Below are positions 2,634 through 53,644 of a DNA stretch of 64,000 nucleotides, piece by piece. This stretch comes from Escherichia phage AV123. The DNA lies in sequence record OR352953.1; one strand, 5' to 3'. The first letter of the stretch is position 1. Each line of letters starts with the position of its first letter. A program made the translations under genes and the position numbers. Below the pieces are notes generated by a model. The model made no database searches. It saw only the letters and a program-made list of their open reading frames with translations, and was not told the DNA's origin.

Positions 2634-2695
2634 TTGACAGCACACCTAACAGATAGTATATTGTATCTCATAGAGCGGGGAAATGGTTTCCCCGC
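2634..2695 (+). promoter_or_regulatory. early promoter-hairpin cassette (-35 TTGACA 2634-2639, -10 TATATT, hairpin GCGGGGAAA-TGG-TTTCCCCGC 2675-2695)
   Basis: 17-nt spacer; hairpin nearly identical to 365-385. Confidence 0.55.
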
Positions 2696-3000: not shown

Positions 3001-3001
3001 T

Positions 3002-3061
3002 TTGACACTAGGCAAACAACGTAGTAAAGTTTATCACATAGGGCGGGAAATGGTTTCCCGC
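3002..3061 (+). promoter_or_regulatory. early promoter-hairpin cassette (-35 TTGACA 3002-3007, -10 TAAAGT, hairpin GGCGGGAAA-TGG-TTTCCCGC 3042-3061)
   Basis: same hexamers, spacing and hairpin as other cassettes. Confidence 0.55.
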
Positions 3062-3084
3062 TCACAACAGAAGAGAAACAAATC

Positions 3085-3255
3085 ATGATCCCAACTATGT
3101 TTTATGTATCGCGCAAAGGTCACAATATTTTTTGGTCTGAAGATTTAAATGAAGCCATGACGTTTGCCCGTGATCGTGTTGCTATCGGTGGCGTTAACAT
3201 TACTGTAACCGATGAAAACGGCATTGAATACTATAACGGCGACGATGAAGAGTAA
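3085..3255 (+). CDS. hypothetical protein (56 aa)
   Basis: ATG 3085 after cassette and AGAAGAG RBS-like; below the 60-aa cut-off of the ORF track. Confidence 0.5.
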   Translation: MIPTMFYVSRKGHNIFWSEDLNEAMTFARDRVAIGGVNITVTDENGIEYYNGDDEE

Positions 3256-3262
3256 TTAATAA

Positions 3263-3283
3263 GGCGGGGGAGTATTCCCCGCC
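3263..3283 (+). promoter_or_regulatory. intercistronic GC hairpin (GGCGGGGGA-GTA-TTCCCCGCC) without recognisable promoter
   Basis: perfect inverted repeat between stop 3255 and ATG 3303. Confidence 0.45.
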
Positions 3284-3302
3284 GTCAATAAAGAGGTAAA
3301 TC

Positions 3303-3572
3303 ATGAAAATATCTTTGGACGTTGCAATCAAGGCCATTGAATCCGGTTACACCCTGGTAAAAGATGATAAGGCTAAAACCGTGCACCACGTTAACAAGGA
3401 AACAGGCGAAAGCATGATCACATATAAAACCGCCTATTTTCTCCAATCAGTAGCAGATCCGCGCGTACAACGCCAGGTTACGGCGGCTATTGCTAAAAAA
3501 TTATGTGCTTTACAGGGTACAAGTTTTAACGAGATCGCCCCGTGTTTTGACTGGTCGAGCTTGAAAAAATAG
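3303..3572 (+). CDS. hypothetical protein (89 aa)
   Basis: track ORF; AAAGAGG RBS. Confidence 0.6.
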   Translation: MKISLDVAIKAIESGYTLVKDDKAKTVHHVNKETGESMITYKTAYFLQSVADPRVQRQVTAAIAKKLCALQGTSFNEIAPCFDWSSLKK

Positions 3573-3573
3573 T

Positions 3574-3629
3574 TTGACAACAATTATAAATCGGGTAGAA
3601 TGTATTTCGTAGGGCGGCAATAGTGCCGC
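3574..3629 (+). promoter_or_regulatory. early promoter-hairpin cassette (-35 TTGACA 3574-3579, -10 TAGAAT, hairpin GCGGCA-ATAG-TGCCGC 3614-3629)
   Basis: sigma70-like hexamers; hairpin variant. Confidence 0.5.
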
Positions 3630-3652
3630 TCACAACTAAAAGAGAAATCAGC

Positions 3653-3847
3653 ATGGCGCTTAAAAAACTAACAAGCAATACTCGTTGGGATGAAATCGAC
3701 GGAGAAGTTTACATTTTCGCCCGTAAACCAGGTGATCAAAAATGGTCTAAGGCTTTTACTTGCCACCCTGCAACAATAGACCTGATAAAAAGGGAAGGTT
3801 TACGTGAAGCGGTAGCAAGAAGTTTACTGATCCCTTATAAAAAATAG
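3653..3847 (+). CDS. hypothetical protein (64 aa)
   Basis: in-frame ATG inside track ORF 3623..3847, placed after the hairpin and AAAAGAG RBS. Confidence 0.55.
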   Translation: MALKKLTSNTRWDEIDGEVYIFARKPGDQKWSKAFTCHPATIDLIKREGLREAVARSLLIPYKK

Positions 3848-3910
3848 TTTGACAATACGCGGTTATCTGGTAAAGTGTACGACATAGGGCGGGGCAATAA
3901 GGCAACGCCC
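3848..3910 (+). promoter_or_regulatory. early promoter-hairpin cassette (-35 TTGACA 3848-3853, -10 TAAAGT, imperfect GC hairpin 3887-3910)
   Basis: hexamers with 17-nt spacer; GGGCG...CGCCC stem. Confidence 0.45.
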
Positions 3911-3928
3911 ATTAATGAGGGTAGAATC

Positions 3929-4033
3929 ATGTTAGAGAAAATTTTCACGGTTGTAATAGTTGGCCTGGCGTTATCGGTTGGATTGGTTGCAACTATGGCT
4001 AACATGATCCTATCTTCCCACGGTATTGGATAA
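3929..4033 (+). CDS. small membrane peptide (34 aa)
   Basis: ATG 3929 after GAGGG RBS-like; MLEKIFTVVIVGLALSVGLVATMANMIL is hydrophobic. Confidence 0.4.
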   Translation: MLEKIFTVVIVGLALSVGLVATMANMILSSHGIG

Positions 4034-4043
4034 GGTGAATCAA

Positions 4044-4259
4044 ATGATCACGAATAAGACAGGTAAAACAGAATTTTTACGCGGCTTGCAAATAGGTAAA
4101 CCTGAGATCTGGCATTGCACTAAATCCGCGCATAATGAAATGAAAGATTTTACCGCTACTTTACAACGTGTTAAAATATCTATCACGCAGAAAAAAGCCT
4201 TGTTAGTAGTAGAAAACGAGATACCGCAAACCATTATTATTGTCGAGCGTACAGCATGA
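4044..4259 (+). CDS. hypothetical protein (71 aa)
   Basis: in-frame ATG of track ORF 4026..4259 with AAGGTGA RBS. Confidence 0.5.
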   Translation: MITNKTGKTEFLRGLQIGKPEIWHCTKSAHNEMKDFTATLQRVKISITQKKALLVVENEIPQTIIIVERTA

Positions 4260-4642
4260 AAACTGAAATCATTATTGAAATCATCAACGGTTATAAAGAA
4301 GCCTTTATTTTTGCTGAATCAGCCAGGGATCATGAAGGCTATTTTATTGATAACTTAGACGATTATGATTTTTCAGATCAAGCCCATCAGCGGATCATTC
4401 ATGACGTAGCGGCTTATTGTGATGCCAATGATGCTGCTATCTCTGAGGCAATGAGCGACGGCGCTACAGCAAACCAGATCGGGAATGATTTACATTTTAC
4501 CCGTAACGGTCACGGCGTAGGCTTTTGGGATCGCCCTGAAATATACACTACTAACACCGCCAACCGCCTAACAAATGCAGCTAAATTAATGCCATCGGTG
4601 CATGCTTACATTGGTGAAGATAATTTGATTTATATTGAATAA
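4256..4642 (+). CDS. hypothetical acidic protein (128 aa)
   Basis: track ORF; ATGA start/stop overlap with upstream gene. Confidence 0.55.
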   Translation: MKTEIIIEIINGYKEAFIFAESARDHEGYFIDNLDDYDFSDQAHQRIIHDVAAYCDANDAAISEAMSDGATANQIGNDLHFTRNGHGVGFWDRPEIYTTNTANRLTNAAKLMPSVHAYIGEDNLIYIE

Positions 4643-4648
4643 AAAGTA

Positions 4649-4707
4649 TTGACACCGATCCCCAATATGTTATTATTTACCACGTAGGCGGGAAATGGTT
4701 TCCCGCC
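4649..4707 (+). promoter_or_regulatory. early promoter-hairpin cassette (-35 TTGACA 4649-4654, -10 TATTAT, hairpin GGCGGGAAA-TGG-TTTCCCGCC 4687-4707)
   Basis: hairpin identical to 365-385. Confidence 0.55.
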
Positions 4708-4730
4708 AGGTAATCAAAAAGGTAAATACT

Positions 4731-19674: not shown

Positions 19675-19754
19675 ATGACTTTACTAGAGAGTATCGTAGT
19701 GTTAATCATCTTTATCATTGTTGTCATAGGATATTTTACAGAGGACTAAAATAA

Positions 19755-19788
19755 AGCCCCTAGAATCACTTCTAGGGGCTTTTGTTTG
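19755..19788. terminator. bidirectional terminator hairpin (AGCCCCTAGAA-TCAC-TTCTAGGGGCT + TTTGTTTG) at convergence of + and - gene blocks
   Basis: 11-bp perfect stem with T-run; lies between last + gene and first - gene. Confidence 0.6.
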
Positions 19789-19849: not shown

Positions 19850-20107
19850 TTAGGAATGCATAAAATCTTCTTCAGGGCAGGTTGAGAGATAAGAGATGCA
19901 CGTTGGGACAACAACAACATTATCTTTAAGGTTTGCAACCAAGCCTTTTGTAATTCCAGCCACTGCTCCGTTAATATCTGCTTGACGGATACCAAAACCT
20001 TGTTGTGCGGATAGATAACAAAATCCCTCACCTTTCTGTTGATTATTATTGAAGTAATAAACGTAGTGCATCATAAAATGGTCTTTAACGATTTGTTCTG
20101 TGGTCAT
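19850..20107 (-). CDS. hypothetical protein (85 aa)
   Basis: track ORF; AGGAG RBS on minus strand. Confidence 0.55.
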   Translation of the reverse strand: MTTEQIVKDHFMMHYVYYFNNNQQKGEGFCYLSAQQGFGIRQADINGAVAGITKGLVANLKDNVVVVPTCISYLSTCPEEDFMHS

Positions 20108-20125: not shown

Positions 20126-20143
20126 AAGGGGCTTTCGCCCCTT
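20126..20143 (-). terminator. intergenic GC hairpin AAGGGGCTTTCGCCCCTT (terminator-like, TTCG tetraloop)
   Basis: same 18-mer recurs at 31411 and 44498. Confidence 0.5.
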
Positions 20144-20150
20144 GGTCAAG

Positions 20151-20963
20151 TTACTTAGTCAAATGATCTTCTATCATTTTTATGAAAGCAGGATTGCTAA
20201 AAGCATCTGCTGCCTTTTCTCTATAAACAAAGACTCCTCTATCTTCGTAAAGAAGAGTTTCTTCGTAATTAATTCCTGGGTTAACAACAATCATTTTTGT
20301 ACCCATAGTAAGTGCAGGGAATAATTCCCAATTAAAATTGATAACTTGGTTTGAACATCCTACTACAACAACCAAATCTTGCATGGTCAAAGTATCAAAC
20401 AAGTGAGCCATATCTGCATACAAAGGTGCAGCCTCACCAAAAAATACAACATTAGGCTTCACCCAGTTATAATCATCTATGTTTATACTATTGTAACCAA
20501 TGTCTACCAGTGTTTTGTAATCTCCAGGATGCATACGGTAAACTACTTCAGGGAGATACCCGTGCACGTGAATAACAGAATCCCTGTCCACACCTGCTCG
20601 CTCTAGTAGATCATCGACGTTTGTTGTCAAGTTTACTACTTGGTTAGGATATTCCTTAAACCACTTTGCTATTTGAATATGTGCAGCATTAGGTTGTACA
20701 TCTTTAAGCTCAACACGTCTTTTGTTATAAAATTCGTGTGTTTTGGCATATAAGTCCATACCGTTCTCGTCTACACCACCGACCACTGGAAGATCTGGAG
20801 ATGTTCTCACACGATAACCTGCTTGGAAAGCTCCAATATCGCAGACCTCTTCTAAGTCATATTCTTCCCATAAGGCACGACCACTATCTGTGTCTGTTCG
20901 GAACGTTCGAATCCCACTGTCTGCACTTAAACCTGCGCCACTAACAAAAATTACTCTTCGCAT
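20151..20963 (-). CDS. Sir2-family (sirtuin-like) NAD+-dependent protein (270 aa)
   Basis: GAGLSADSGIRTFR (cf. sirtuin GAGIS..SGIPDFR), TTNVDDL (cf. TQNIDGL), HVHG catalytic His, VVFFGE, VVVGCS; no CxxC zinc module seen. Confidence 0.7.
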   Translation of the reverse strand: MRRVIFVSGAGLSADSGIRTFRTDTDSGRALWEEYDLEEVCDIGAFQAGYRVRTSPDLPVVGGVDENGMDLYAKTHEFYNKRRVELKDVQPNAAHIQIAKWFKEYPNQVVNLTTNVDDLLERAGVDRDSVIHVHGYLPEVVYRMHPGDYKTLVDIGYNSINIDDYNWVKPNVVFFGEAAPLYADMAHLFDTLTMQDLVVVVGCSNQVINFNWELFPALTMGTKMIVVNPGINYEETLLYEDRGVFVYREKAADAFSNPAFIKMIEDHLTK

Positions 20964-20974
20964 TCAATATCCTC

Positions 20975-21520
20975 TTAGTAATCATCATCCCAAGAAGATG
21001 CGTCGTAACGCTCTTCCTCTTCGAAATCCCAATTAATTTCTACTCCAAAATCTAAAAACAATTTAACAATGTTTTCTGTAGAGTAGTATTTATCATAAGC
21101 ATTAGCTAGTTCCCAATACTTGTCACTCAATTTTTTATATTTAGGATCATTATAGTCATAATCTACTTTATAACCATAATCATACATCTCTTGTTCAGCT
21201 TTAAGCATAGCTTCTGGTGTAAGAAGATTAGGGAACGGACGATTTCTTTCTTTTAACTTAGAAGCAATCCAGTTTGCAACATTCGCCACTTCACCATCTC
21301 GATTATCACCTAAACAACTTGCATAATCTCCATCTTCGTAAGTGCCTAAATCCCCACTAACTTCATGTACAATAGACGAATACGATCCACACGTTTCACA
21401 ATCTGAAAAAGTGTCTACTGTTGTAATATCAATAGATAAAACTGGTAAAGCCATAGCTTCTTTCACACAAGCCTCCTCATATAATAACATGTCATCAAAA
21501 CCCATATATCCTCCAGACAA
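20975..21520 (-). CDS. hypothetical acidic protein (181 aa)
   Basis: track ORF; D/E/Y-rich. Confidence 0.5.
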   Translation of the reverse strand: MSGGYMGFDDMLLYEEACVKEAMALPVLSIDITTVDTFSDCETCGSYSSIVHEVSGDLGTYEDGDYASCLGDNRDGEVANVANWIASKLKERNRPFPNLLTPEAMLKAEQEMYDYGYKVDYDYNDPKYKKLSDKYWELANAYDKYYSTENIVKLFLDFGVEINWDFEEEERYDASSWDDDY

Positions 21521-21559
21521 ATAAAGCCCCTGCTTGGGGCTTTGGTTAAGTTTTACGGA

Positions 21560-22171
21560 TTATACCAGACTTTTAAGGTACTTGTCAAGGGCTTCTTGAT
21601 CACCTTGACAAACATAGCAACGGAAGTCTTGAGCAGAAGGTTCTTTGTCCTCGTCCCAATCCCAATAGACAGTACCTTTATAGCGTGAGCCTGGGAACTC
21701 GAAGTATGCCACATGAGTAATATGGTGTGGGCCACCCCAAAATTCTGTAAAAGTAAATTGAGGATACGCTGCTTTAACTGTATTCTCAAACCAAGTTTTA
21801 CGATCTAATGCTTCGTTTATAAAATAAGCATGGCGTTCCATTTCATCCCAATCTTTCCAAACGCATTTTTCATCCAGAGAAAAAACAAAATCTTCACTGT
21901 TAAAATCGTCTGTATCTGATTCCAAAATATCATAATCATGTGCACTAGGTATCCACCATCCAGCTTCTAATAGTGCTTTTGCAGGTACAAAACCTTTTTC
22001 AGCATATTGATCAAATTCTTTTACTCTACGTACAGTGCAGTATTCATCTTCACCACCAATGTCCAGTAGACAAGCACCTTTGCGTCTTGCTGCAAGACCA
22101 TGTGTATCAAAAACTACAACACTACCTTCACCGTCTTCACGATCTACTTGATATGCAACTTTTTGAGTCAT
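21560..22171 (-). CDS. hypothetical protein (203 aa)
   Basis: track ORF. Confidence 0.55.
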   Translation of the reverse strand: MTQKVAYQVDREDGEGSVVVFDTHGLAARRKGACLLDIGGEDEYCTVRRVKEFDQYAEKGFVPAKALLEAGWWIPSAHDYDILESDTDDFNSEDFVFSLDEKCVWKDWDEMERHAYFINEALDRKTWFENTVKAAYPQFTFTEFWGGPHHITHVAYFEFPGSRYKGTVYWDWDEDKEPSAQDFRCYVCQGDQEALDKYLKSLV

Positions 22172-22294
22172 ATTACCCCCAATGTATATGGGAAATTAAC
22201 CAAAAGATAAATTCCCAAAAACACCAACCAAGAAAAGTTAATGGAATTATAAAGGCTATCAGAGCAGTCTTCCAGCCTTTCCACAATGTTTCCA

Positions 22295-23284
22295 CTATTC
22301 CTCCATACATTTAAGAATATGTGCAATGACAGGTATAGTCCAACCGTTACCTAACATCTTATATGCTTGTGTGTTACTACTCACTTTAAAGTAGTCATCT
22401 GGCACACCTTGCAAACGGCAACACTCTTTAACGGTTAACTTTCTATAATGTACGCCTTCACTCAATTTTTCAAAAGCATCTAAATATCTTCCAGGTGGAA
22501 TGTAAGCTAATAGTACGTCTTTCGGCACAGTCGTGAGGCAACGAGTTTTTTCACTGTCCTGAACTTCCAAACAATGTACCAAACGATCAGTTTTAGATGT
22601 ACTACGTTTGCCATTTTCATTAATTCTACGCCCATATATTGCTGCTGGATAAAAAACCAGTTGTCTGCGACTCTTTTCAAAATACTGTTCTATATTGCCA
22701 CCTTTGGCATAATTTGCATCTATGCAATAAGCCTTATCTCTGTCTACAATACTATCATCTTCAATGATATCTTGCAATACTTCATTGGTAATCTCCCAGG
22801 GTTTTATTTCCCAGTTGCACCAGTATAAACGTTGTCTATTCTGTGCCGTGAAATCTGCGGAGTTAATGAATACGGGATCAACACCTAAGTAACTTGTGAT
22901 CACGTTTTCCCACTCCACTTTCATCTTAACGTTTTCAAGCATGAACTTAACATTAGGGTTAAACTTTTTAATATGTTCAAGAATTTCAACATATTCGAAG
23001 AATAGCTTAGATCGCGGATCTTGAAAGTTCAAACCCTTACCAGAAGAAGAGAAGCCTTGACACGGACTACCACCTAACAAAAGATCAATTTCTCCCCACG
23101 GGATATCCCATTCTCTCCATTTTGTAACATCACCTAACTGAATAATATCTGGAAAATTTGCTTGGCTTTCAGCTATGGCAAATTTGTCTAATTCTGAAGC
23201 ATAATATGTATCTACTTCAATACCTGCACTTTTTAGCGCAAGCATTCCTCCTGACATACCATCAAAAAGACTTAAAACTTTCAT
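22295..23284 (-). CDS. DNA (cytosine-5)-methyltransferase (329 aa)
   Basis: FDGMSGG (AdoMet motif I), GGSPCQGFS (PCQ catalytic motif IV), ENV motif. Confidence 0.8.
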   Translation of the reverse strand: MKVLSLFDGMSGGMLALKSAGIEVDTYYASELDKFAIAESQANFPDIIQLGDVTKWREWDIPWGEIDLLLGGSPCQGFSSSGKGLNFQDPRSKLFFEYVEILEHIKKFNPNVKFMLENVKMKVEWENVITSYLGVDPVFINSADFTAQNRQRLYWCNWEIKPWEITNEVLQDIIEDDSIVDRDKAYCIDANYAKGGNIEQYFEKSRRQLVFYPAAIYGRRINENGKRSTSKTDRLVHCLEVQDSEKTRCLTTVPKDVLLAYIPPGRYLDAFEKLSEGVHYRKLTVKECCRLQGVPDDYFKVSSNTQAYKMLGNGWTIPVIAHILKCMEE

Positions 23285-24037: not shown

Positions 24038-24558
24038 ACAACCTCCTCGTAGTTGTTATTGTGTTTTACTGTCTCAACATACAATAAAGATTCCATCTGT
24101 AATACATTACCAGAAATAATAAACCCATAAGCCATTTCAGATGTGTCTATATCATATGCCCCGTCTTCCGGTTTAGCAAAGTGTAAAACTATTTCATCCG
24201 GGTTTTCTTCATCCCATAGTTTAGAAATTTTCCGAACCAGAATGTTAGCTAAAATAGTTGACATTCGGGATAAAGCTGTATCCTCATATCTTTTAAAACC
24301 TAGCCAATAGAGGTTAAGAATTTCTACTTCTTCTTGTGTTAAGTTTTTGTCTAAAGTAATCAGATCTGTAGAGCACGGCGTTTTTGTTGAACCTACTGTT
24401 ACAAAACCTGGAGTGTTATGAAAAACAATCTTAACTTTATCACGTATAAAGTTTAAACCTTGTGCCTCAACTATATATTGTATTGTAGGTACAATATCGT
24501 TTGTTACATCAATAAAACTATCTTTAATGACGCTTATATTATTTCTGGACAAGACCAT
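24034..24558 (-). CDS. hypothetical protein (174 aa)
   Basis: track ORF. Confidence 0.55.
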   Translation of the reverse strand: MVLSRNNISVIKDSFIDVTNDIVPTIQYIVEAQGLNFIRDKVKIVFHNTPGFVTVGSTKTPCSTDLITLDKNLTQEEVEILNLYWLGFKRYEDTALSRMSTILANILVRKISKLWDEENPDEIVLHFAKPEDGAYDIDTSEMAYGFIISGNVLQMESLLYVETVKHNNNYEEVV

Positions 24559-25117
24559 TCTCCTCTAAAATAGGCTTAATAAACTCGAAAATTTGTTTTT
24601 TACTTTTACCTCTAATATTAAAACAAGGAACATTAAACTTTTTAGCCAACATCCAAGCTGTTCTTGTACCACCTAAAGGATCTCCATTTTTATCTGTATT
24701 TGCACAAGCTAAAAGAAAACAAGATGGTTTTGGATTCTCAAGATCTCTGCCAAGAACTTGGTGGATATTCCTTTGATGTAATTTTTTAGCACCTTGAGAT
24801 AATCTGTCCCAAGCCGGATGCAATTCTTTTGCATATTGTAAGGTTAAAGCATAGTTTACACTATCTGGTCTGTCAAGAACAATAACCTCTCCCTCTATTT
24901 CATTACCTTTAAACGAGAGCCAAGGGATGTATATTTCTTTCTTTGTATTGTTCCCACTATCATATACCCCGCATTCAAATGCGGAATCTGCACCTTCTGC
25001 TTTACCAGATCGCAAAATGAACCATGTAGATAACCATTTTGCAACAGATACCATAGTATCCCATTCTTCGTCTGTAATATCTCTGCTACCAACACCTGTG
25101 TAGAATAAATCGCTCAT
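24539..25117 (-). CDS. SLOG-superfamily (DprA/LOG-like) Rossmann-fold protein, tentative (192 aa)
   Basis: internal ATG with AAGGAG RBS; YTGVGSR ... SGKAEGADSAFE ... GDPLGGTRTAWM resemble DprA/LOG glycine-rich motifs; assignment by eye only. Confidence 0.35.
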   Translation of the reverse strand: MSDLFYTGVGSRDITDEEWDTMVSVAKWLSTWFILRSGKAEGADSAFECGVYDSGNNTKKEIYIPWLSFKGNEIEGEVIVLDRPDSVNYALTLQYAKELHPAWDRLSQGAKKLHQRNIHQVLGRDLENPKPSCFLLACANTDKNGDPLGGTRTAWMLAKKFNVPCFNIRGKSKKQIFEFIKPILEENGLVQK

Positions 25118-25127
25118 GGTTTTCTCC

Positions 25128-25448
25128 TTAACAAGTAATATTGGGAGTAACAATTGGATTAACAATTGGAGTAATAGGGTACGTAAACCAAGGGCTTCCA
25201 ATTTCCCAAGGATTATAAGGTCTACGAGGATCAAATGGGGGAGTTACTTCAGGCTTTTTCCAAATCTCCGCTAGTTGTTTCTTCCATTTATCCCTTGCTG
25301 TCTCATTATCTTCATCCAACTGTTCATCATTATCTTTTATTTCTGGTTTTGGAAATAAAAGCTCTTTGACTAACTCAACATCTTCCGTCTCAATAGTAGT
25401 TTCTTTCGTAAGTTCTCCTACTGTTTCTTTAATTGTGATTTTATACAT
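25128..25448 (-). CDS. hypothetical protein (106 aa)
   Basis: track ORF. Confidence 0.5.
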   Translation of the reverse strand: MYKITIKETVGELTKETTIETEDVELVKELLFPKPEIKDNDEQLDEDNETARDKWKKQLAEIWKKPEVTPPFDPRRPYNPWEIGSPWFTYPITPIVNPIVTPNITC

Positions 25449-26194
25449 TAGTCCTCCTCTAAAGTAGAATAAAATTGTAACGTATTTGAATCATCAAAAT
25501 ATGCAAAGGTTAAATTACCATTGAAGCAAGATCCTGTGTCCATATATACCCTATTACTGCTAATCACAGGTTTAGGAACATAAGAATGCCCGTGAAATAC
25601 ATAATCTACTCCTGAAACCCTAGGAAGAAGAATTCCTTCAAGTGCGCAATCTATCATATCACGATCCCACATTAAAGATTCTGTGAATCGAGAAACTTGC
25701 TCTTTATTCATATTCAAACAAAATGGCAAAACTTCTGTCACTGGTAAATGTTCCAAAACTGAAGGATACCCACCGTGAATAAAGCCTAGTTTCATATTAC
25801 GATAATTGACAACAAGTACAACAGGTAAATCTTCTAGCATCAAAGCAAGAGCAGTTGCACCCTCTTCTCCACACTCGTCTAGAACTGTATGGCCTCCGTT
25901 CTGAAACCAACATTCGTAATATCGTCTATCACCTTCTAGCAACCCTTTAATCATCATATCTTCATGATTTCCACGAATACCATAACGATTTAGCTTTCTG
26001 GTGAATTCAACAACACAACGAAAATTCTGCTTGCCGCGATCTGTAAGATCTCCTAAAGATACAACAACATCTTGATCTCGGATACCTAAAGTATTAACAC
26101 CTTTCTGGTACAAATCAAAGCAACCATGTAAATCACCAATAATAAACAGGTCTTGATCATCTTTTACACTAATTTCTTGATATACTAGCATCAA
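25448..26194 (-). CDS. PPP-family Ser/Thr protein phosphatase (lambda-phosphatase-like metallophosphoesterase)
   Basis: GDLHGCFD, GDLTDRG, GNHED signature motifs. Confidence 0.75.
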   Translation of the reverse strand: MMLVYQEISVKDDQDLFIIGDLHGCFDLYQKGVNTLGIRDQDVVVSLGDLTDRGKQNFRCVVEFTRKLNRYGIRGNHEDMMIKGLLEGDRRYYECWFQNGGHTVLDECGEEGATALALMLEDLPVVLVVNYRNMKLGFIHGGYPSVLEHLPVTEVLPFCLNMNKEQVSRFTESLMWDRDMIDCALEGILLPRVSGVDYVFHGHSYVPKPVISSNRVYMDTGSCFNGNLTFAYFDDSNTLQFYSTLEED

Positions 26195-26527: not shown

Positions 26528-27100
26528 TTAATGTGTTAATGAAACTGCGTAGCTAAACACAGGTTCAGATATTACATCGGCTACAGTAATAAAAACGTCT
26601 TCGTCTTGAGTTGTTTCTACACGACATACAGTTACACCATTCACCACAAATTCAACGCAATGTGGAATATCTTCACAAACGAAGGTAGTGTAAGTAACAC
26701 CCAAAGCATCATACAAAGATTTAACAGTGTTTGCAAGTGCCGCAGTTTCTTCTTTTTCTGAGACAATGAATGCTGTAACAATAAGATTGTTTGCATAGTT
26801 TAAACTGTCCTCTATAGCCAATGATTTACAAGGTAGTAATGCAAAATATTTACCTGGTTTAATCAGACCTGCTTCCCATTGATTCAAAATTGCCTGGGAT
26901 GGTTTAGTAATATAAAACAGATTTTCACTTGGGTTATCAATATTACTTCTGGCGATACAACGTGAAGGATTATTAATATCAAATACATGATCAAAATCTA
27001 CACAAACAGGTAAACTGAAAGGTGTGAATTTTTTACCTAATAATCCTATGGCTGATAATATGTTTGCTGTGCTTATCTTCCCGTTAAAAGCTAAACGCAT
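26528..27100 (-). CDS. hypothetical protein (190 aa)
   Basis: track ORF. Confidence 0.55.
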   Translation of the reverse strand: MRLAFNGKISTANILSAIGLLGKKFTPFSLPVCVDFDHVFDINNPSRCIARSNIDNPSENLFYITKPSQAILNQWEAGLIKPGKYFALLPCKSLAIEDSLNYANNLIVTAFIVSEKEETAALANTVKSLYDALGVTYTTFVCEDIPHCVEFVVNGVTVCRVETTQDEDVFITVADVISEPVFSYAVSLTH

Positions 27101-49025: not shown

Positions 49026-50141
49026 TTACTCTGCTGGTTCCCAAGTACCTGGAATCATCTTACGTACACGTACCCCAACAGGCTTAGTAGGAATACCTTC
49101 GTCTGAAAATTCTTCGTACTCAATTTCAACAAATTGACCAATAAGTGTCAAAGCATTTTCTTCTTTACGATAGTTAATGGTTTCATCTGAATCCTTACGC
49201 ATCAGGAATTCGACTACTTTACCATTTTCCATCTCTCCTGTCAATACCCCGTCACCATTTTTATCACGCTTTGCACTTACCACTTTAACTTCAAGCGTCT
49301 GCCGTGGTTTACGTTTAATAACATCATAAGAACGTTTATCAAACTCGTAAACACCTTGTGCGTTACGATACACCACACCTTCCGCTTTCTCACGTAGAGC
49401 TTTTGCATAGAAAGCATCAAACTGCTCTTGGTTTTCAATGTACTCTGTATGTACTACACAAATGAGTTCATCTAAACCCTTATCTTCAACAACTTCTTTT
49501 AGAGCAGCCAAAACTTGAACCCTCTTCTCAAATGGTACAGATGGCACGGGAACATCATATACATAGTATTTAAGAAGCGGAGTGTTAGCATTATGCTTTT
49601 TCCACGCACTATTAATTTGTTGAAGGCTAAGGATACCCAAACCAGCAAAAACTTCACCGTCAAGAGGATGACCAACCACTTCTTTAATGAAGGTTGGAAT
49701 TTCTTCCCAGTGAGGTGGGAGTTTATATACCTCTCCAGCTTTAGATAAACATTCACCTTGCATGTTAATCATTGAACGTAGACCATTCAATTTATATTGT
49801 GCATAACCTGGGAACAAAACACGATCAGCATAATCTTTATAATCCTGACATTTCATGGGTGTAGAAGGAACATGGTTTTCAGCTTCCTCTTTTGTTTTAT
49901 AATACCCATTCTTAAGTTGCTTTGTCCATTTGGCAAGAGCTTCTATTTCAGCTTGTTCTTCTGCTGTTGTTTCATTTGAGCGACCAATATTTTTAGGTTC
50001 TGCCGTATAAGATTTGCTAGTGATCTTTCCACCTAATTGACCATGAGCAACAGTTACAACACTACCTTCGGTATAGACTGACCACTGTCTAATTTTACCT
50101 GTAGAAGTTTTACCATATAATGTAGGATTAGTTTGTTTCAT
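49026..50141 (-). CDS. ATP-dependent DNA ligase (covalent nucleotidyltransferase)
   Basis: motif I KLNGLR (KxNG variant), motif IV EGVVYR, motif V KRK; internal ATG with GGAGG RBS. Confidence 0.6.
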   Translation of the reverse strand: MKQTNPTLYGKTSTGKIRQWSVYTEGSVVTVAHGQLGGKITSKSYTAEPKNIGRSNETTAEEQAEIEALAKWTKQLKNGYYKTKEEAENHVPSTPMKCQDYKDYADRVLFPGYAQYKLNGLRSMINMQGECLSKAGEVYKLPPHWEEIPTFIKEVVGHPLDGEVFAGLGILSLQQINSAWKKHNANTPLLKYYVYDVPVPSVPFEKRVQVLAALKEVVEDKGLDELICVVHTEYIENQEQFDAFYAKALREKAEGVVYRNAQGVYEFDKRSYDVIKRKPRQTLEVKVVSAKRDKNGDGVLTGEMENGKVVEFLMRKDSDETINYRKEENALTLIGQFVEIEYEEFSDEGIPTKPVGVRVRKMIPGTWEPAE

Positions 50142-50331
50142 CTTTAACCTCCAGTTGCGAAAGAACCCATTTAGCCATTTCAATTTCACCGTGTAGTCTG
50201 CCTAGTTCATAGGCATCATCAATATTACCACCAGTGTAATCATCCACCATAAAGTAAGGATCTTCACTACTGTTAGGCGCGTTTGCAATTCTCGTTAGTT
50301 CTTCAATAAATGTCATAGTTAACCTTACCAA
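50128..50331 (-). CDS. hypothetical protein (67 aa)
   Basis: track ORF. Confidence 0.45.
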   Translation of the reverse strand: MVRLTMTFIEELTRIANAPNSSEDPYFMVDDYTGGNIDDAYELGRLHGEIEMAKWVLSQLEVKDETN

Positions 50332-50549
50332 TTATACACAAGAGTTTGAATTTCTTCCATCAAATCTTCAAGATCTGTATCAACATATTCAGAAGATGTT
50401 GCCATAAAGTATGTAATCATTGTGAACCCTTCCGAAGAAAGGGCATCAAGGATATCATTAAACATATCTTCCATTTCAGTATTCTCACCAAATGAAAATA
50501 ACATTTGTTGATCTTCGCTTACACCTTTAACATAGATAGCTGTGCTCAT
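50325..50549 (-). CDS. hypothetical acidic protein (74 aa)
   Basis: track ORF. Confidence 0.45.
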   Translation of the reverse strand: MSTAIYVKGVSEDQQMLFSFGENTEMEDMFNDILDALSSEGFTMITYFMATSSEYVDTDLEDLMEEIQTLVYNW

Positions 50550-50552
50550 ATA

Positions 50553-50852
50553 TTAATCCTTAAGACGTTCATTTAAATCTTCACATTCCAGTGTTAACTC
50601 TGAAACTTGTTCATTCAAACAAGAAACTTCTTCATTTAGATCTGAAATAATGTTTTCTAATGAATCTACTTGATCATCATATGAACGTTTTGTTTCTTCA
50701 AGGTCTTCCATAAGACTATCAATCAAATGCAGCAAAGATAAGATATAGCCGTCTCCTGTTGCGTTCCTCCACTCACTTCCGTAGCGATAAATAATAATTT
50801 CACCATCATCGACTACTGTAAAATACTTACCTTTACCAGAATAAATTTCCAT
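50553..50852 (-). CDS. hypothetical protein with coiled-coil-like C-terminus (99 aa)
   Basis: track ORF. Confidence 0.5.
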   Translation of the reverse strand: MEIYSGKGKYFTVVDDGEIIIYRYGSEWRNATGDGYILSLLHLIDSLMEDLEETKRSYDDQVDSLENIISDLNEEVSCLNEQVSELTLECEDLNERLKD

Positions 50853-50861
50853 AAACTCTCC

Positions 50862-51266
50862 TTATTGTAGCTTAAGTGAACTGCGAAGACGTTCCTCTTG
50901 CTGATCACGAATATGTTGTGGAACCTCATGAATTGAATCGTTACCGTGCCTATTCTCCACAACTAAAGAAATAACTTGATAACCAAACTCTTCAGCAAGA
51001 GTTAAATAAGGTTTAAGTTCTTTTTCTGTAGTAGAGGTATTAGAAACAATAATCTTTTCAACACCATACTGCATATATTTTTGTACTTTGACACGACACC
51101 ATTGGTGTGCTTTATGGATATTCTCTTGTTTCCACTCATACACACCATCTTCAGTGTAGTGGTATTGATCTGCCTCACAAATAGGCCAATGATTTTCAGA
51201 GATAATTTCTGCTACTGTAGATTTACCTGCACCTGAAACACCACGTAAAATGATAAGTTGTTTCAT
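50862..51266 (-). CDS. P-loop kinase, polynucleotide 5'-kinase-like
   Basis: ILRGVSGAGKST Walker A resembles the T4 Pnk kinase-domain N-terminus; adjacent to ligase and phosphoesterase. Confidence 0.5.
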   Translation of the reverse strand: MKQLIILRGVSGAGKSTVAEIISENHWPICEADQYHYTEDGVYEWKQENIHKAHQWCRVKVQKYMQYGVEKIIVSNTSTTEKELKPYLTLAEEFGYQVISLVVENRHGNDSIHEVPQHIRDQQEERLRSSLKLQ

Positions 51267-52199
51267 TTAGCCTCCAAAGAAGTTTTCTATTTCTTTACGT
51301 CGCTCTTGTGGATCGAGAGCAGCCCATTGAGCCTTCGTAAATTTATTTCGAAGCCATTCTAGCAAAGTATAATATTCTTCGTCAACAATTTGTTTAGCAT
51401 TGTTTGGGTTGTCCCAAATCATATCCCACTTCTTATTGCCACCACGCATAAGGAATTTCTTAGCAAGATAGTATGGTGACTTAATCTTTAAGAGTAAGTT
51501 AAACGGATAGTTTGTTTCACGAACAACAAAGCCTTCGTGTCTACAATGTTTAGACATTTCAACAACATCTGAAAATTTAATCATTGGATAAACTTCAGGA
51601 CGTTTAAATTTTGTAATAGATGCAATCCCATCAAGAACACCTTCAGGTAACATGAAACTTGTCCCATCAAGATTTTGAATTCTTGCTCCAATTAAGTATG
51701 CGCCTGGTTCTTCTTCGACAATATGTGGATCAGAAGGATCACAGATTTCAAAAAGGAAAGTTGCTTTTGCACTTTCTGTCCACTTAATGAAATACTCTAT
51801 GTCATCACACTCGGAAACAATACGGTTCTTGGCAATAGTTGCAAAGTCTGATTCTAGGCTTCCTGTTGTTGATACAACAAGTTTCCCTTTGTACACACCT
51901 ACAGATGCCATAAAACCGTTTACTTTACGGACAGCATCTACAAATTCATCTCCTGGAAGATCTGTACCATTCTCAAAACGATTAAAGATTTTAGTAAAAG
52001 GCCAAATAACAACATTGTCTTCTGAGTCAACAACCAACCCACGACAATCTAAAAGTCGTTTGTCAACGTTCCACAAGTTATCCCAGAATACATTGTTTTT
52101 GTATTTAAGTACAGCAAGACCAGCATACTCTCCAGATTTAACTTCTTTTTTATGCACTAAACCTTTTGCAATCAGGTCATCACAATTGAACTTAGCCAC
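51267..52199 (-). CDS. RNA ligase-like nucleotidyltransferase
   Basis: motif I KVNGF (KxNG), motif IV EGFVVR, motif V KIKS. Confidence 0.55.
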   Translation of the reverse strand: MAKFNCDDLIAKGLVHKKEVKSGEYAGLAVLKYKNNVFWDNLWNVDKRLLDCRGLVVDSEDNVVIWPFTKIFNRFENGTDLPGDEFVDAVRKVNGFMASVGVYKGKLVVSTTGSLESDFATIAKNRIVSECDDIEYFIKWTESAKATFLFEICDPSDPHIVEEEPGAYLIGARIQNLDGTSFMLPEGVLDGIASITKFKRPEVYPMIKFSDVVEMSKHCRHEGFVVRETNYPFNLLLKIKSPYYLAKKFLMRGGNKKWDMIWDNPNNAKQIVDEEYYTLLEWLRNKFTKAQWAALDPQERRKEIENFFGG

Positions 52200-52200
52200 C

Positions 52201-52752
52201 TTAATCTCCTTTGATTATCTTATGATGATCTACAACAATAATATCACGCTTACCCATAATAGAGATGATTTCGTCAAAATGCAAGATTTTCCCGTGTGCA
52301 TCCCAACCAACATCCAACATTTTCCCATACAAATGATCAGGGAATGATCCGTGAGAGTGTCCGTGTAGCATGATTGATCCATGCCCTTGTTTATTCCAGG
52401 CAGCCATAGGGTAATGACTTAAGACGAAGAACAGCTTCTGATATTTCACTTCGTCATAATACACAACTTCTCCATACTCTGCAAGCACTTTTCTGTGTTT
52501 ACTGTAATCATGGTTCCCAACACAGTAAGTAATATCCCCTTGGAGACGGGAAGCAATCTTACGGGTATCTTCTTCAGTCCCGAAACAGAAGTCCCCAAGA
52601 TGGTACATCTTTACTCCTGGTGTTGTGGCACATTTATTCCATGCTTCGATCAGTGCTTCTGTCATATGCTCCATATCTTCCCACGGGCGATATTCAGGAG
52701 CAAACTCTCGGATACGTTTGTGCATAAAATGCAAATCACTTGTAATAAACAT
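52201..52752 (-). CDS. calcineurin-like metallophosphoesterase (candidate 2',3'/3'-phosphatase)
   Basis: SDLHF, GDFCFG, GNHD motifs. Confidence 0.7.
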   Translation of the reverse strand: MFITSDLHFMHKRIREFAPEYRPWEDMEHMTEALIEAWNKCATTPGVKMYHLGDFCFGTEEDTRKIASRLQGDITYCVGNHDYSKHRKVLAEYGEVVYYDEVKYQKLFFVLSHYPMAAWNKQGHGSIMLHGHSHGSFPDHLYGKMLDVGWDAHGKILHFDEIISIMGKRDIIVVDHHKIIKGD

Positions 52753-53114
52753 TAGTATAATCCCTCGCTGAATAGTTCACTGTTGTGACCATTTCTTTCG
52801 TAGTTAATTTGTTTGGCGTTATCTGCAATGACATAAGCATCTTTGCGACTCCACCAGTTATAATACTGATCAATAAACCCTTGATTATCAGGTAAGCAAA
52901 ACAGTTTATCGATCAATCCTGCATCTTTTAAAACATTAAGTTGTGCAGATAGTACAGGATTTGCATGCCTAACACAAGGAATAATTAACTCTTCGCCATT
53001 GTTAAGAATATACTTGTTCGCAGCGCAGACTATAACACGTTGAGCATAGTGATCCTCACCAATCCAAGTAAGAGGTTGGTAACAAATATCATGTTGATTA
53101 GTAGCGCACATCAA
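52752..53114 (-). CDS. hypothetical protein (120 aa)
   Basis: track ORF. Confidence 0.5.
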   Translation of the reverse strand: MMCATNQHDICYQPLTWIGEDHYAQRVIVCAANKYILNNGEELIIPCVRHANPVLSAQLNVLKDAGLIDKLFCLPDNQGFIDQYYNWWSRKDAYVIADNAKQINYERNGHNSELFSEGLY

Positions 53115-53269
53115 TTTTCTCCATACTCTTTTAATCTATCAGCGAAAAAACTGTAATCAGGAAGTAAAAGATCATTACTCGTATCGCTACAGTTTTCTTC
53201 CTCTTTATAGATAAAATGCCCTTCATCCTCTTCTTGCTCTGACCAGACTGAGTAATGCATAATACCTAC

Positions 53270-53644
53270 TTAATAGTTAACACGTTTAATTTCAACACCA
53301 TAGGATGAAATAAAATTTTCCTTAGCTAACATATATTTACCAGCAGCAGAAGGATTTGATGTATGAACATAGATAGTTTTAAGAGCATCCCATTCACCAG
53401 CGTACAACATACATTCTACATCTAAGAACGCATGATAGCCTTCTTGATCTTCCCCAAGATCATTATCGAAGTGTATTTCTGAGATATTATTGAAATTATC
53501 TTCATCTGAAACAAAAGATGACCAATCCCCAAAAGATTTTAACCAAATGGCATCCTCATAACCATAATCTTTAGGATCTCTTAAATCGTCTAACCAAAGA
53601 ATTTTAGCCACTATCAACACCCTTCCTGTTTCTCTTCTTTCCAA
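53270..53644 (-). CDS. hypothetical protein (124 aa)
   Basis: track ORF; conserved-looking WLDDLRDP, HFDNDLG, VHTSNP segments of unknown family. Confidence 0.5.
   Translation of the reverse strand: MERRETGRVLIVAKILWLDDLRDPKDYGYEDAIWLKSFGDWSSFVSDEDNFNNISEIHFDNDLGEDQEGYHAFLDVECMLYAGEWDALKTIYVHTSNPSAAGKYMLAKENFISSYGVEIKRVNY

Follow-up and report, generated by a model that had tools for sequence, protein, structure and literature searches.

Here we report the analysis of a phage-encoded sirtuin gene within a 64,000-nucleotide (nt) stretch of Escherichia phage AV123 (sequence record OR352953.1), referred to throughout as the window. The gene lies on the minus strand at 20151..20963 and encodes a protein of 270 amino acids (aa), equivalent to phi92 gp038, T5.102 and bas61_0186. 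As judged from its sequence it specifies an intact canonical Sir2-family enzyme of zinc-less, class-III-like (CobB-like) type, with the NAD+-binding and catalytic residues all present. The function that we tentatively favour, at slightly less than even probability, is that of a stand-alone, early-expressed, zinc-independent lysine deacylase of the CobB/SIRT5 type (class III). We favour it because the nearest relatives are proven deacylases, because the substrate pocket, the FGE loop, the Tyr-x-x-Arg pair and the catalytic His are invariant, and because the family is acidic without having gained basic residues. Such an enzyme would bind NAD+ in the canonical Rossmann pocket, cleave off nicotinamide and move the ADP-ribose onto the carbonyl oxygen of an acyl-lysine sitting in a hydrophobic tunnel; His134 would then activate the ribose 2′-OH and resolve the intermediate, yielding free lysine and O-acyl-ADP-ribose. 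We infer that the sirtuin would be made early, from a host-type promoter common to an acidic neighbour here called acid1, and would remove acyl groups from the lysines of host proteins, or of phage proteins that had become acylated inside the host cell. A report exists of phage proteins being lysine-acetylated by the host in the course of infection (bioRxiv 10.64898/2026.04.27.721073).

The original prediction, made from the letters of the window alone, had read this open reading frame (ORF) as a Sir2-like enzyme on the strength of its core motifs and had remarked on the lack of zinc-ribbon cysteines, and both observations stand. The translation contains GAGLSADSGIRTFR, LTTNVDDL, IHVHG, VVFFGE and VVVGCS, and its only two cysteines (C41 and C203) both fall outside the zinc-module segment. 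The ORF matches Pfam SIR2 (PF02146) at 81 bits against a gathering cut-off of 24 (E 1.3e-22) and PHROG 2162, “Sir2 (NAD-dependent deacetylase)”, over its full length (residues 1-269, 2.2e-105), which for sequence matches is far beyond chance; the protein is 100% identical to one encoded by phage Nernie. Sir2 domains had also been introduced as better known host defence effectors, a framing that did not survive, since Pfam, Foldseek and PADLOC place the phage protein with the CobB/SIRT5-like deacylase type. PF02146 was the sole Pfam family matched at E values up to 1, with no match to SIR2_2 (PF13289); the PADLOC defence models gave nothing significant (best E 0.0066, across 36 residues); and no defence-type Sir2 occurred among the top 50 Foldseek structural matches in the PDB. 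With structural neighbours that are all deacylases, a defence-type Sir2 NADase was ruled out.

Among proteins of solved structure E. coli CobB (1s5p, E 1.3e-18) is the nearest, at ~26% identity, and the two align (phage/CobB) through GAGLSADSGIRTFR/GAGISAESGIRTFR, FYNKRR/FYNARR, PNAAH/PNAAH, TTNVDDLLERAG/TQNIDNLHERAG, VIHVHG/VIHMHG and KPNVVFFGE/RPHVVWFGE. To map the pocket we took the CobB mutant names given in PDB titles (A76G, Y92A, I131C, V187Y) as anchors and counted along the alignments, by which CobB A76, Y92, R95, I131, H147, V187 and F190 correspond to phage C41, Y79, R82, V116, H134, V172 and F175, respectively. All of these positions are invariant across a family alignment of 33 diverse members that share 56-91% identity with the query. 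The residues identical in 33/33 sequences are G9-A-G11, S13, S16, F21, R22, Y79, R82, N115, D117, H134-G135, F174-F175, E177, G202, S204 and N228-P229. The NAD+-binding motif, the N-x-D of TQNID and the His of HG thus align with CobB, the deviation being Thr114 in place of the Gln, and inspection of the catalytic site by alignment, a check that the original prediction had proposed, found His134 and the NAD-binding residues kept, so the loss that would have refuted that prediction is absent. The Tyr-x-x-Arg pair is the mark of class III sirtuins, and through it SIRT5 and CobB recognise the succinyl- or malonyl-lysine carboxylate. The pair is kept in the phage protein, as Y79 and R82 of FYNKRR against Y92 and R95 of FYNARR in CobB, so that acidic acyl groups (succinyl, malonyl) are predicted to be accepted besides acetyl. 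Two length differences accompany this conservation: the cofactor-binding loop is 4 residues longer in the phage family (FRTDTxSG), and a variable insertion of ~27 residues (46-72) is found in Stephanstirmvirinae and some T5-like phages but not in the Mydo-like ones.

Structure prediction, likewise proposed beforehand, led to the same relatives. The AlphaFold2 model (predicted local distance difference test score, pLDDT, 90; predicted template modelling score, pTM, 0.87) has the sirtuin fold of a Rossmann domain plus a small domain. Foldseek against the PDB returned CobB first (template modelling score, TM, 0.84 on the target), followed in order by Sir2Af1, Sir2Af2, SIRT5, Sir2Tm and SIRT2. The nearest relatives in sequence and structure are therefore proven deacylases: CobB, then Sir2Af1, Sir2Af2 and SIRT5. 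At residues 135-172, the usual place of the zinc ribbon, the model contains a confident three-stranded sheet (pLDDT ~95), and for this reason the small domain appears to be retained without a metal.

The loss of the zinc site extends across the 33 aligned family members and is coupled to a change in the TQNID motif. No cysteine occurs in residues 136-168 of the query, and none of the 33 family members has more than one there. Among 1.84 billion cluster representatives, all scanned with HMMER, 2,157 proved to be relatives of the phage protein, and from these we built a wider alignment of 151 sequences, consisting of the best 150 of the 2,157 relatives (at least 180 aa) combined with seven close members and the query. 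The catalytic His is present in 151/151 of these, Tyr79 in 144/151 and Arg82 in 119/151. Thr, Ser or Ala tends to take the place of the TQNID Gln where the zinc cysteines are missing: residue 114 is Gln in 76 sequences with at least three zinc-segment cysteines and in 13 with two or fewer, and is Thr, Ser or Ala in 12 and 47, respectively. This switch, for which the Thr114 codon lies at about 20622..20624 of the window, is the only robust residue difference between zinc-containing and zinc-less relatives; a SIRT5 Gln mutant (Q140L) was sought in the literature to interpret Thr114, and nothing was found. Distant zinc-less relatives are almost all metagenomic sequences according to a cluster look-up. 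The zinc-less group is also the more acidic of the two (median net charge -12 versus -4), with zero conserved basic residues gained relative to its nearest zinc-containing relatives, and the phage family is uniformly acidic (isoelectric point, pI, 4.65-5.78; net charge -6 to -19). Because the family is acidic and has gained no basic residue, basic protein substrates fit it better than RNA.

The early timing that we propose for the sirtuin derives from its upstream region. Two acidic genes precede it on the minus strand: acid1 (20975..21505, 176 aa) and, further upstream, acid2 (21560..22171, 203 aa). A perfect sigma-70 consensus promoter-like site at 21559..21588 (minus strand; TTGACA, 18 nt, TGgTATAAT; 12/12 with an extended -10) lies within the last codons of acid2 and faces acid1 and the sirtuin gene, its TATAAT including the acid2 stop codon. 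No other exact TTGACA-N16-18-TATAAT match occurs in the 64 kb of the window, where 0.12 are expected and 11/100 shuffled sequences contained at least one. The Phapecoctavirus vB_EcoM_01 keeps the site as TTGACA-18-TATAGT together with an equivalent of the hairpin described next; acid2 coding constraint may contribute to this conservation. A G+C-rich hairpin followed by a T-run (21523..21543, minus strand) separates the promoter-like site from the ribosome-binding site of acid1 and could be either the terminator of an upstream unit or a stem-loop in the 5′ untranslated region; its fold was not significant (z-score -1.64). A promoter-like site ahead of a terminator-like hairpin is an odd order, and both are conserved in a Phapecoctavirus. 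Directly after the sirtuin stop codon there is a second terminator-like hairpin (20126..20143, minus strand), with a 7-bp stem that includes 5 GC pairs and a T-rich tail. An Rfam scan of the region from 19 to 24 kb found nothing close to gathering scores. Taken together, these signals suggest that acid1 and the sirtuin gene probably form a small, early unit read by host RNA polymerase. The last gene of the minus-strand block is an 85-aa ORF of PHROG 15991 (unknown function; 19850..20107, minus strand), which is syntenic after the sirtuin gene in Stephanstirmvirinae, and a terminator-like hairpin with a 13-bp stem that would act on both strands (19753..19782) marks the convergence of the strand blocks.

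The locus belongs to a phage gene family that is already known, annotated and discussed. Over this region the window shares 99.5% identity with Escherichia phage EmilieFrey (Bas61), a Justusliebigvirus (phi92-like, Stephanstirmvirinae), and 97-99% with dozens of other phage records, and in near-identical records the gene already carries the label sirtuin, Sir2-like protein or CobB. It stands close to the distal end of a minus-strand block, ~36 kb long, that contains accessory genes besides those for nucleotide metabolism and replication, just ahead of the convergence of the plus- and minus-strand gene blocks; the sign of the GC skew reverses near 20 kb. The original prediction had presented a sirtuin as unusual in a phage, which our searches contradict: by tblastn the family occurs in 983 of 50,697 phage records (915 with at least 80% query coverage), including T5, rV5 and phi92. 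Carriers comprise Stephanstirmvirinae, T5-like Demerecviridae, Vequintavirinae, KVP40-like Vibrio phages and jumbo phages, and identity to the window protein is 52% in T5 (T5.102), 48% in rV5-like phages, 56% in Mydo and 38% in KVP40-like (schizoT4-like) Vibrio phages. The DNA of the acid1 and sirtuin genes had zero matches in 5,426 complete E. coli genomes, so that a host origin of the pair is unsupported. In Vibrio phages, Skliros et al. 2016 (PMC5107563) described a Sir2/CobB that lacks the zinc site and keeps the acetyl-lysine tunnel, noted its co-occurrence with phage NAD+ salvage genes and named T5 among further carriers. A “distinct clade” of phage sirtuins (V5, Mydo, SP15, Serratia BF) was set out by Iyer et al. 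2022 (PMC9503650), who predicted a KptA-like RNA-repair role for it from gene neighbourhoods. Four records labelled “Campylobacter phage” (MG065639, MG065645, MG065656 and MG065661) are 97-99% identical here to E. coli Justusliebigvirus or rV5-like phages, and their C. jejuni host label looks doubtful.

Sirtuin catalysis, in which attack on C1′ is followed by a His-assisted attack of the 2′-OH, parallels the two-step mechanism of Tpt1, and this formal similarity speaks for the main rival to a deacylase. On that account the phage sirtuin would be a Tpt1/KptA-like remover of RNA 2′-phosphates: the 2′-phosphate left by a host anticodon nuclease would attack NAD+ at C1″, and the ribose 2″-OH, activated by His134, would free ADP-ribose 1″,2″-cyclic phosphate and leave a 2′-OH, in joint action with the phage cREC, HAD, phosphoesterase, kinase and RNA ligase proteins. 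Tpt1 is a basic protein, whereas the phage family is strongly acidic and has gained no conserved basic residue, a comparison that is a sequence-level proxy for RNA binding; there is likewise no change in the hydrophobic pocket for acyl-lysine or in the YxxR pair. We consider an RNA 2′-phosphate remover unlikely, and nonetheless the alternative to be taken most seriously, as it was published as a prediction for the same phage clade (PMC9503650, section 3.7.3) and the neighbourhoods on which it was based were reproduced in Bas53, Mydo and T5. In the rV5-like Bas53 an RNA ligase gene and a cREC gene (1.3e-14) precede the sirtuin gene and a DNA ligase gene follows it, with kinase and phosphoesterase genes alongside; in Mydo the RNA ligase and phosphoesterase genes are upstream and the DNA ligase gene is directly downstream; and in T5 a HAD_SAK_2 “RNA repair” phosphatase (4e-20) is encoded three genes downstream in the same gene string.

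The window itself holds the full set of RNA-end-repair genes, recognised by Pfam matches at 49026..53644 on the minus strand: cREC (53270..53644), a calcineurin-like phosphoesterase (52201..52752), a T4 Rnl1-like RNA ligase (51267..52199), a P-loop kinase (50862..51266) and an ATP-dependent DNA ligase (49026..50189). In Vequintavirinae such genes stand immediately beside the sirtuin gene, but here they lie ~30 kb upstream on the same strand, and the immediate neighbours of the sirtuin gene have no RNA-repair domain. The T5-like phage DT57C provides a further indication of an RNA-related role. Its “defective sir2” (3468..3740 of the examined stretch) joins a short Sir2 piece to the C-terminus of a T5.105 homologue (HAD_SAK_2) in a chimera, two deletions having inactivated both the Sir2 and the HAD gene; in the sister phage DT571/2 the two genes are retained (3001..4491 of the examined stretch). 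As a natural double knock-out DT57C implies that the Sir2-HAD module is dispensable, and the joint decay of the two genes would suit an RNA-repair role, although this is one case in which the lost genes are adjacent. The clade-specific loss of zinc and the Gln-to-Thr change also hint at a functional shift, and the names cREC and HAD_SAK are themselves computational predictions.

Several observations weigh against a zinc-independent deacylase and temper our preference for it. The clade departs from the proven deacylases in having lost the four zinc cysteines and in carrying Thr114 for the Gln of TQNID, and conservation of the pocket may partly reflect NAD+ binding and core packing. The NCBIfam CobB models, matched in the profile search for a sirtuin class, all score under their cut-offs (NF001753 best, at 106 bits against 243; NF040867, prot_deacyl_CobB, at 86 against 320), which by this measure makes the phage protein a divergent branch rather than a CobB orthologue. 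Our promoter and terminator calls are consensus matches only. In other lineages the sirtuin gene adjoins RNA-end-processing rather than protein-modification genes, which indicates another substrate; in at least one T5-like phage the sirtuin is dispensable, so any role must be conditional; and the searchable literature holds no report of an enzymatic activity or phenotype for any family member. A broader departure from our preferred reading is to be reckoned with, although we regard it as doubtful: either the clade would be a non-deacylase, NAD+-consuming enzyme with a substrate new to sirtuins, the likeliest being RNA 2′-phosphate ends in countering host RNA-cleaving defences, or acid1 and the sirtuin would together form a new early two-protein unit for host take-over or anti-defence.

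Upstream of the sirtuin gene there is also a gene for a PrpA/PrpB-like Ser/Thr protein phosphatase (25448..26194, minus strand; NF008516, 4.9e-27). Together with a PHROG 768 “DprA-like” protein gene (24539..25234, minus strand) it lies 3.5-5 kb from the sirtuin gene, and in Vibrio phage R11Z a Ser/Thr phosphatase gene lies ~4 kb from Sir2. The sirtuin and the Ser/Thr phosphatase may be a recurring pair of modification-removing enzymes, or the arrangement may be coincidence.

The original prediction had drawn attention to a putative NAD+ reconstitution pathway in the same genome. Genes of that type are there, whereas a systematic link between them and the sirtuin is not. A PRPS-like (Adps-like) gene (55659..56552, TIGR01251, 2.2e-34) and a Nampt-like (Namat-like) gene (56624..58357, NF006629, 2.3e-138) are adjacent on the plus strand, 71 nt apart, in the NARP1 architecture. 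The alignment with the PRPS profile is confined to positions 24-253 of 309, a profile comparison rather than a structural one, and this is consistent with the truncation at the C-terminus that would identify an Adps, an enzyme of ADPR-PP synthesis whose signature is loss of the C-terminal PRPS alpha11-alpha12 module (PMC13586617). NARP1 has been demonstrated in Bas63 and SpbetaL1, and Bas63 is a Felixounavirus, which puts it outside the genus of the window phage and makes it no relative of that phage. We can therefore only infer a NARP1 function here, as the Namat-like protein is just ~39% identical to the FelixO1-type Namat and the demonstrated operons come from outside this genus.

Counts across phage records show that the two gene types are separable. 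Phage records with a Namat/Nampt homologue number 2,043 and belong mostly to lineages that lack the phage Sir2 family. By host name, the sirtuin is found in 289 Salmonella and 375 Escherichia phage records and Namat in 129 and 188; from the excess of the former it follows that at least 347 sirtuin carriers have no Nampt/Namat, and from the totals (2,043 versus 983) that at least 1,060 Namat carriers have no sirtuin. These lower bounds rule out an obligatory link between the sirtuin and NARP. Co-occurrence is nevertheless real in several large-phage lineages, as Vequintavirinae and KVP40-like phages carry both the sirtuin and NAD+ salvage genes. An enzyme of this family might be an NAD+ glycohydrolase, or a manipulator of NAD+ pools, that works with the NARP1-type genes in a futile cycle to set NAD+ and nicotinamide levels, or destroys NAD+-derived immune signals. 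The gene pair in the window, the lineages holding both gene types (PMC5107563) and the literature on defence Sir2 proteins as NADases all speak for such a role; we rate it as most improbable, given that the phage protein is not of the defence NADase type, that the two gene types so often occur apart, that Felixounavirus (the Bas63 group) is missing among 60 sampled sirtuin matches, and that NAD+ degradation offers the phage no obvious gain.

ADP-ribose transfer is a further known outcome of sirtuin chemistry, being carried out by SIRT4, SIRT6 and SirTM. A phage mono-ADP-ribosyltransferase could modify a host or phage protein or a nucleic acid and so redirect host machinery, with an effect like that of T4 Alt/Mod or SirTM. 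The intact NAD+ site would allow this, a promoter-like site suits host take-over, and some sirtuins are on record as transferring ADP-ribose (PMC9503650), but the protein has its catalytic His, neither a macrodomain gene nor any other for an ADP-ribose eraser adjoins the sirtuin gene, and the closest relatives are efficient deacylases, which leaves this activity quite improbable.

The three minus-strand ORFs of the original prediction (20151..20963, 20975..21520 and 21560..22171) are all present, and its description of the two neighbours as acidic and uncharacterised is borne out. The product of acid1 (phi92 gp039) has a pI of 4.05 and a net charge of -25, and that of acid2 (phi92 gp041) a pI of 4.58 and a net charge of -19; each matches only a PHROG of unknown function (9509 and 8514, respectively), with nothing significant for either in Pfam, NCBIfam, PADLOC or PDB sequences. 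One boundary needs correction: the ORF at 20975..21520 exists, but acid1 most likely starts at the ATG at 21505, to judge from a GGAGGA ribosome-binding site and the EmilieFrey annotation, the alternative TTG at 21520 falling within the hairpin. In EmilieFrey acid1 is labelled “putative aminoacyl-tRNA synthetase”, a label for which we see no support, as the only trace of it is a sub-threshold PhetRS_B1 match (E 0.03, 14.9 against 26.8 bits). The ORF at 26528..27100 (minus strand), which bears the same EmilieFrey label, was suspected of being an acid1 paralogue and by inspection has no obvious similarity to it; it has no significant Pfam, NCBIfam or PDB sequence match either, and its tRNA-synthetase label appears unsupported. 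A small hydrophobic ORF (22173..22310, minus strand; 45 aa, annotated as 40 aa in EmilieFrey and as phi92 gp042) lies between a Dcm-like methyltransferase gene and acid2 and overlaps the methyltransferase 3′ end by a few codons.

Co-occurrence of the three genes, also proposed as a check, turned out not to indicate a conserved module. The order acid2, acid1, Sir2 and 85-aa ORF is common to Justusliebigvirus and Phapecoctavirus, whereas across the phage records there are 983 with the sirtuin, 136 with acid1 and 151 with acid2, the latter two essentially limited to Stephanstirmvirinae. Distant relatives of acid1 occur in a few jumbo phages and those of acid2 in Pseudomonas and Xanthomonas phages. 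The acid2 homologue of the Pseudomonas siphophage Ab19 has genes for primase, MazG and a ligase around it, and the 6.3-kb stretch examined there contains no Sir2. In FKP3 an HNH endonuclease gene (4061..4711 of the examined stretch) and in nepoznato a 246-aa ORF of unknown function (3477..4217 of the examined stretch) lie exactly between acid1 and Sir2; both may be mobile-element insertions. On the record counts, the Ab19 arrangement and these interruptions, a three-gene module was ruled out, and acid2 is not specifically tied to the sirtuin. Of the two neighbours, acid1 alone is plausibly co-expressed with it.

A further reading is that acid1 and the sirtuin form a functional two-protein unit, with acid1 as a targeting subunit, a regulator or an inhibitor, or else that acid1 is an anti-defence protein in its own right, such as a nucleic-acid mimic, and has only the promoter in common with the sirtuin gene. 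Their common promoter-like site, with hairpins at both bounds, would suit a unit, as would their tight spacing: acid1 ends 11 nt ahead of the sirtuin ATG in the window, the ORFs overlap by 16 nt in vB_EcoM_01, and in phi92 the intact acid1 ORF overlaps the sirtuin start codon by 13 nt. Between genera acid1 evolves much faster than its partner (only 34-38% identity, compared with 65-69% for Sir2 and about 69-71% for acid2), and besides its strong negative charge it has three invariant cysteines (Cys36, Cys39 and Cys64), to which most homologues add another within an acidic tail at the C-terminus. A single G-to-T change (GAA to TAA) has cost both the window phage and EmilieFrey this conserved tail, removing 8 residues (EEDIECEE) from acid1 (window 20975..20999 versus phi92 stretch 2653..2680). 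Set against a unit are this nonsense mutation, the roughly 850 sirtuin records without an acid1 homologue (136 versus 983), the intervening genes in FKP3 and nepoznato, an acid1 relative in Serratia phage BF that is distant from any annotated Sir2, and a predicted acid1 fold that resembles no known fold. We accordingly judge a two-protein unit improbable, and continue to prefer a sirtuin that acts alone as a deacylase.

What the present analysis adds to a known gene family is the mapping of a class-III pocket; the coupling of a Gln-to-Thr switch to zinc loss; a putative promoter-bounded acid1-Sir2 unit with a lineage-specific nonsense mutation and an acid1 fold without a known match; recognition of DT57C as a natural knock-out; and bounds that show independence from the NAD+ reconstitution genes. 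The question is of wider interest, as ~2% of sequenced phage genomes carry this sirtuin, including the model phage T5 and several engineerable BASEL coliphages, and conservation of the protein is strong (48-60% identity between phage families that are not related). Should it prove to be a deacylase, it would be a clear instance of a phage that erases host lysine acylation and thereby reprograms the cell or protects its own proteins; should it act on RNA, it would represent both a new sirtuin chemistry and a new counter-defence. The value of the work lies in sharper predictions, namely a class-III pocket, zinc-independence with the Gln-to-Thr change, probable early co-expression with acid1 and no obligatory tie to NAD+ reconstitution, and T5 and the BASEL phages make the sirtuin question at least as tractable as the window locus does.

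Comparison with known systems places the phage protein closest to CobB (1S5P, 6RXJ), its best match in both sequence (E 1.3e-18) and structure (TM 0.84). The two share GAGxSAxSGIRTFR, LWEE, FYNxRR, PNxAH, N-x-D, HxHG and (V)VxFGE; unlike CobB, the phage protein is acidic, has no zinc cysteines, has Thr for the Gln of TQNID and contains the 4-residue longer loop and the 46-72 insertion. Human and zebrafish SIRT5 have the same fold (Foldseek E about 1e-13 to 1e-14) and the same Tyr-x-x-Arg pair, which lies in the aligned region 74-137, but are only 18-20% identical and retain a Cys4 zinc ribbon and the TQNID Gln. Defence Sir2 NADases (ThsA, DSR1/2, Sir2-HerA and those associated with prokaryotic Argonautes, pAgo) resemble it in their Rossmann fold, in the active-site Asn and His and in belonging to phage-host conflict. 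In contrast to them, the phage sirtuin is a 270-aa single domain that lacks a sensor domain, has no adjacent HerA or partner ATPase, TIR, SLOG or pAgo, and keeps the FGE loop and acyl-lysine pocket. SirTM, a sirtuin with a replaced catalytic His and a linked macrodomain, offers a parallel as a case of bacterial and phage sirtuins with a non-deacetylase role in conflict, and was ruled out as the identity of the phage protein, which keeps His134 and has no macrodomain among its neighbouring ORFs. Sirtuin-macro pairs do occur in actinophages (PMC9503650). The viral sirtuin clade of Iyer et al. 2022 (V5, Mydo, SP15, Serratia BF; PMC9503650) is the family to which the window gene belongs, and differs in neighbourhood, the window gene being ~30 kb from the RNA-repair genes, while our charge and pocket analysis does not favour RNA as the substrate. 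Finally, the phage proteins of PHROG 2162 (T5.102, phi92 gp038, and those of the rV5/Mydo and KVP40 types) are the same family with no essential difference, the lineages being distinguished by the 46-72 insertion and by the genes that surround them.

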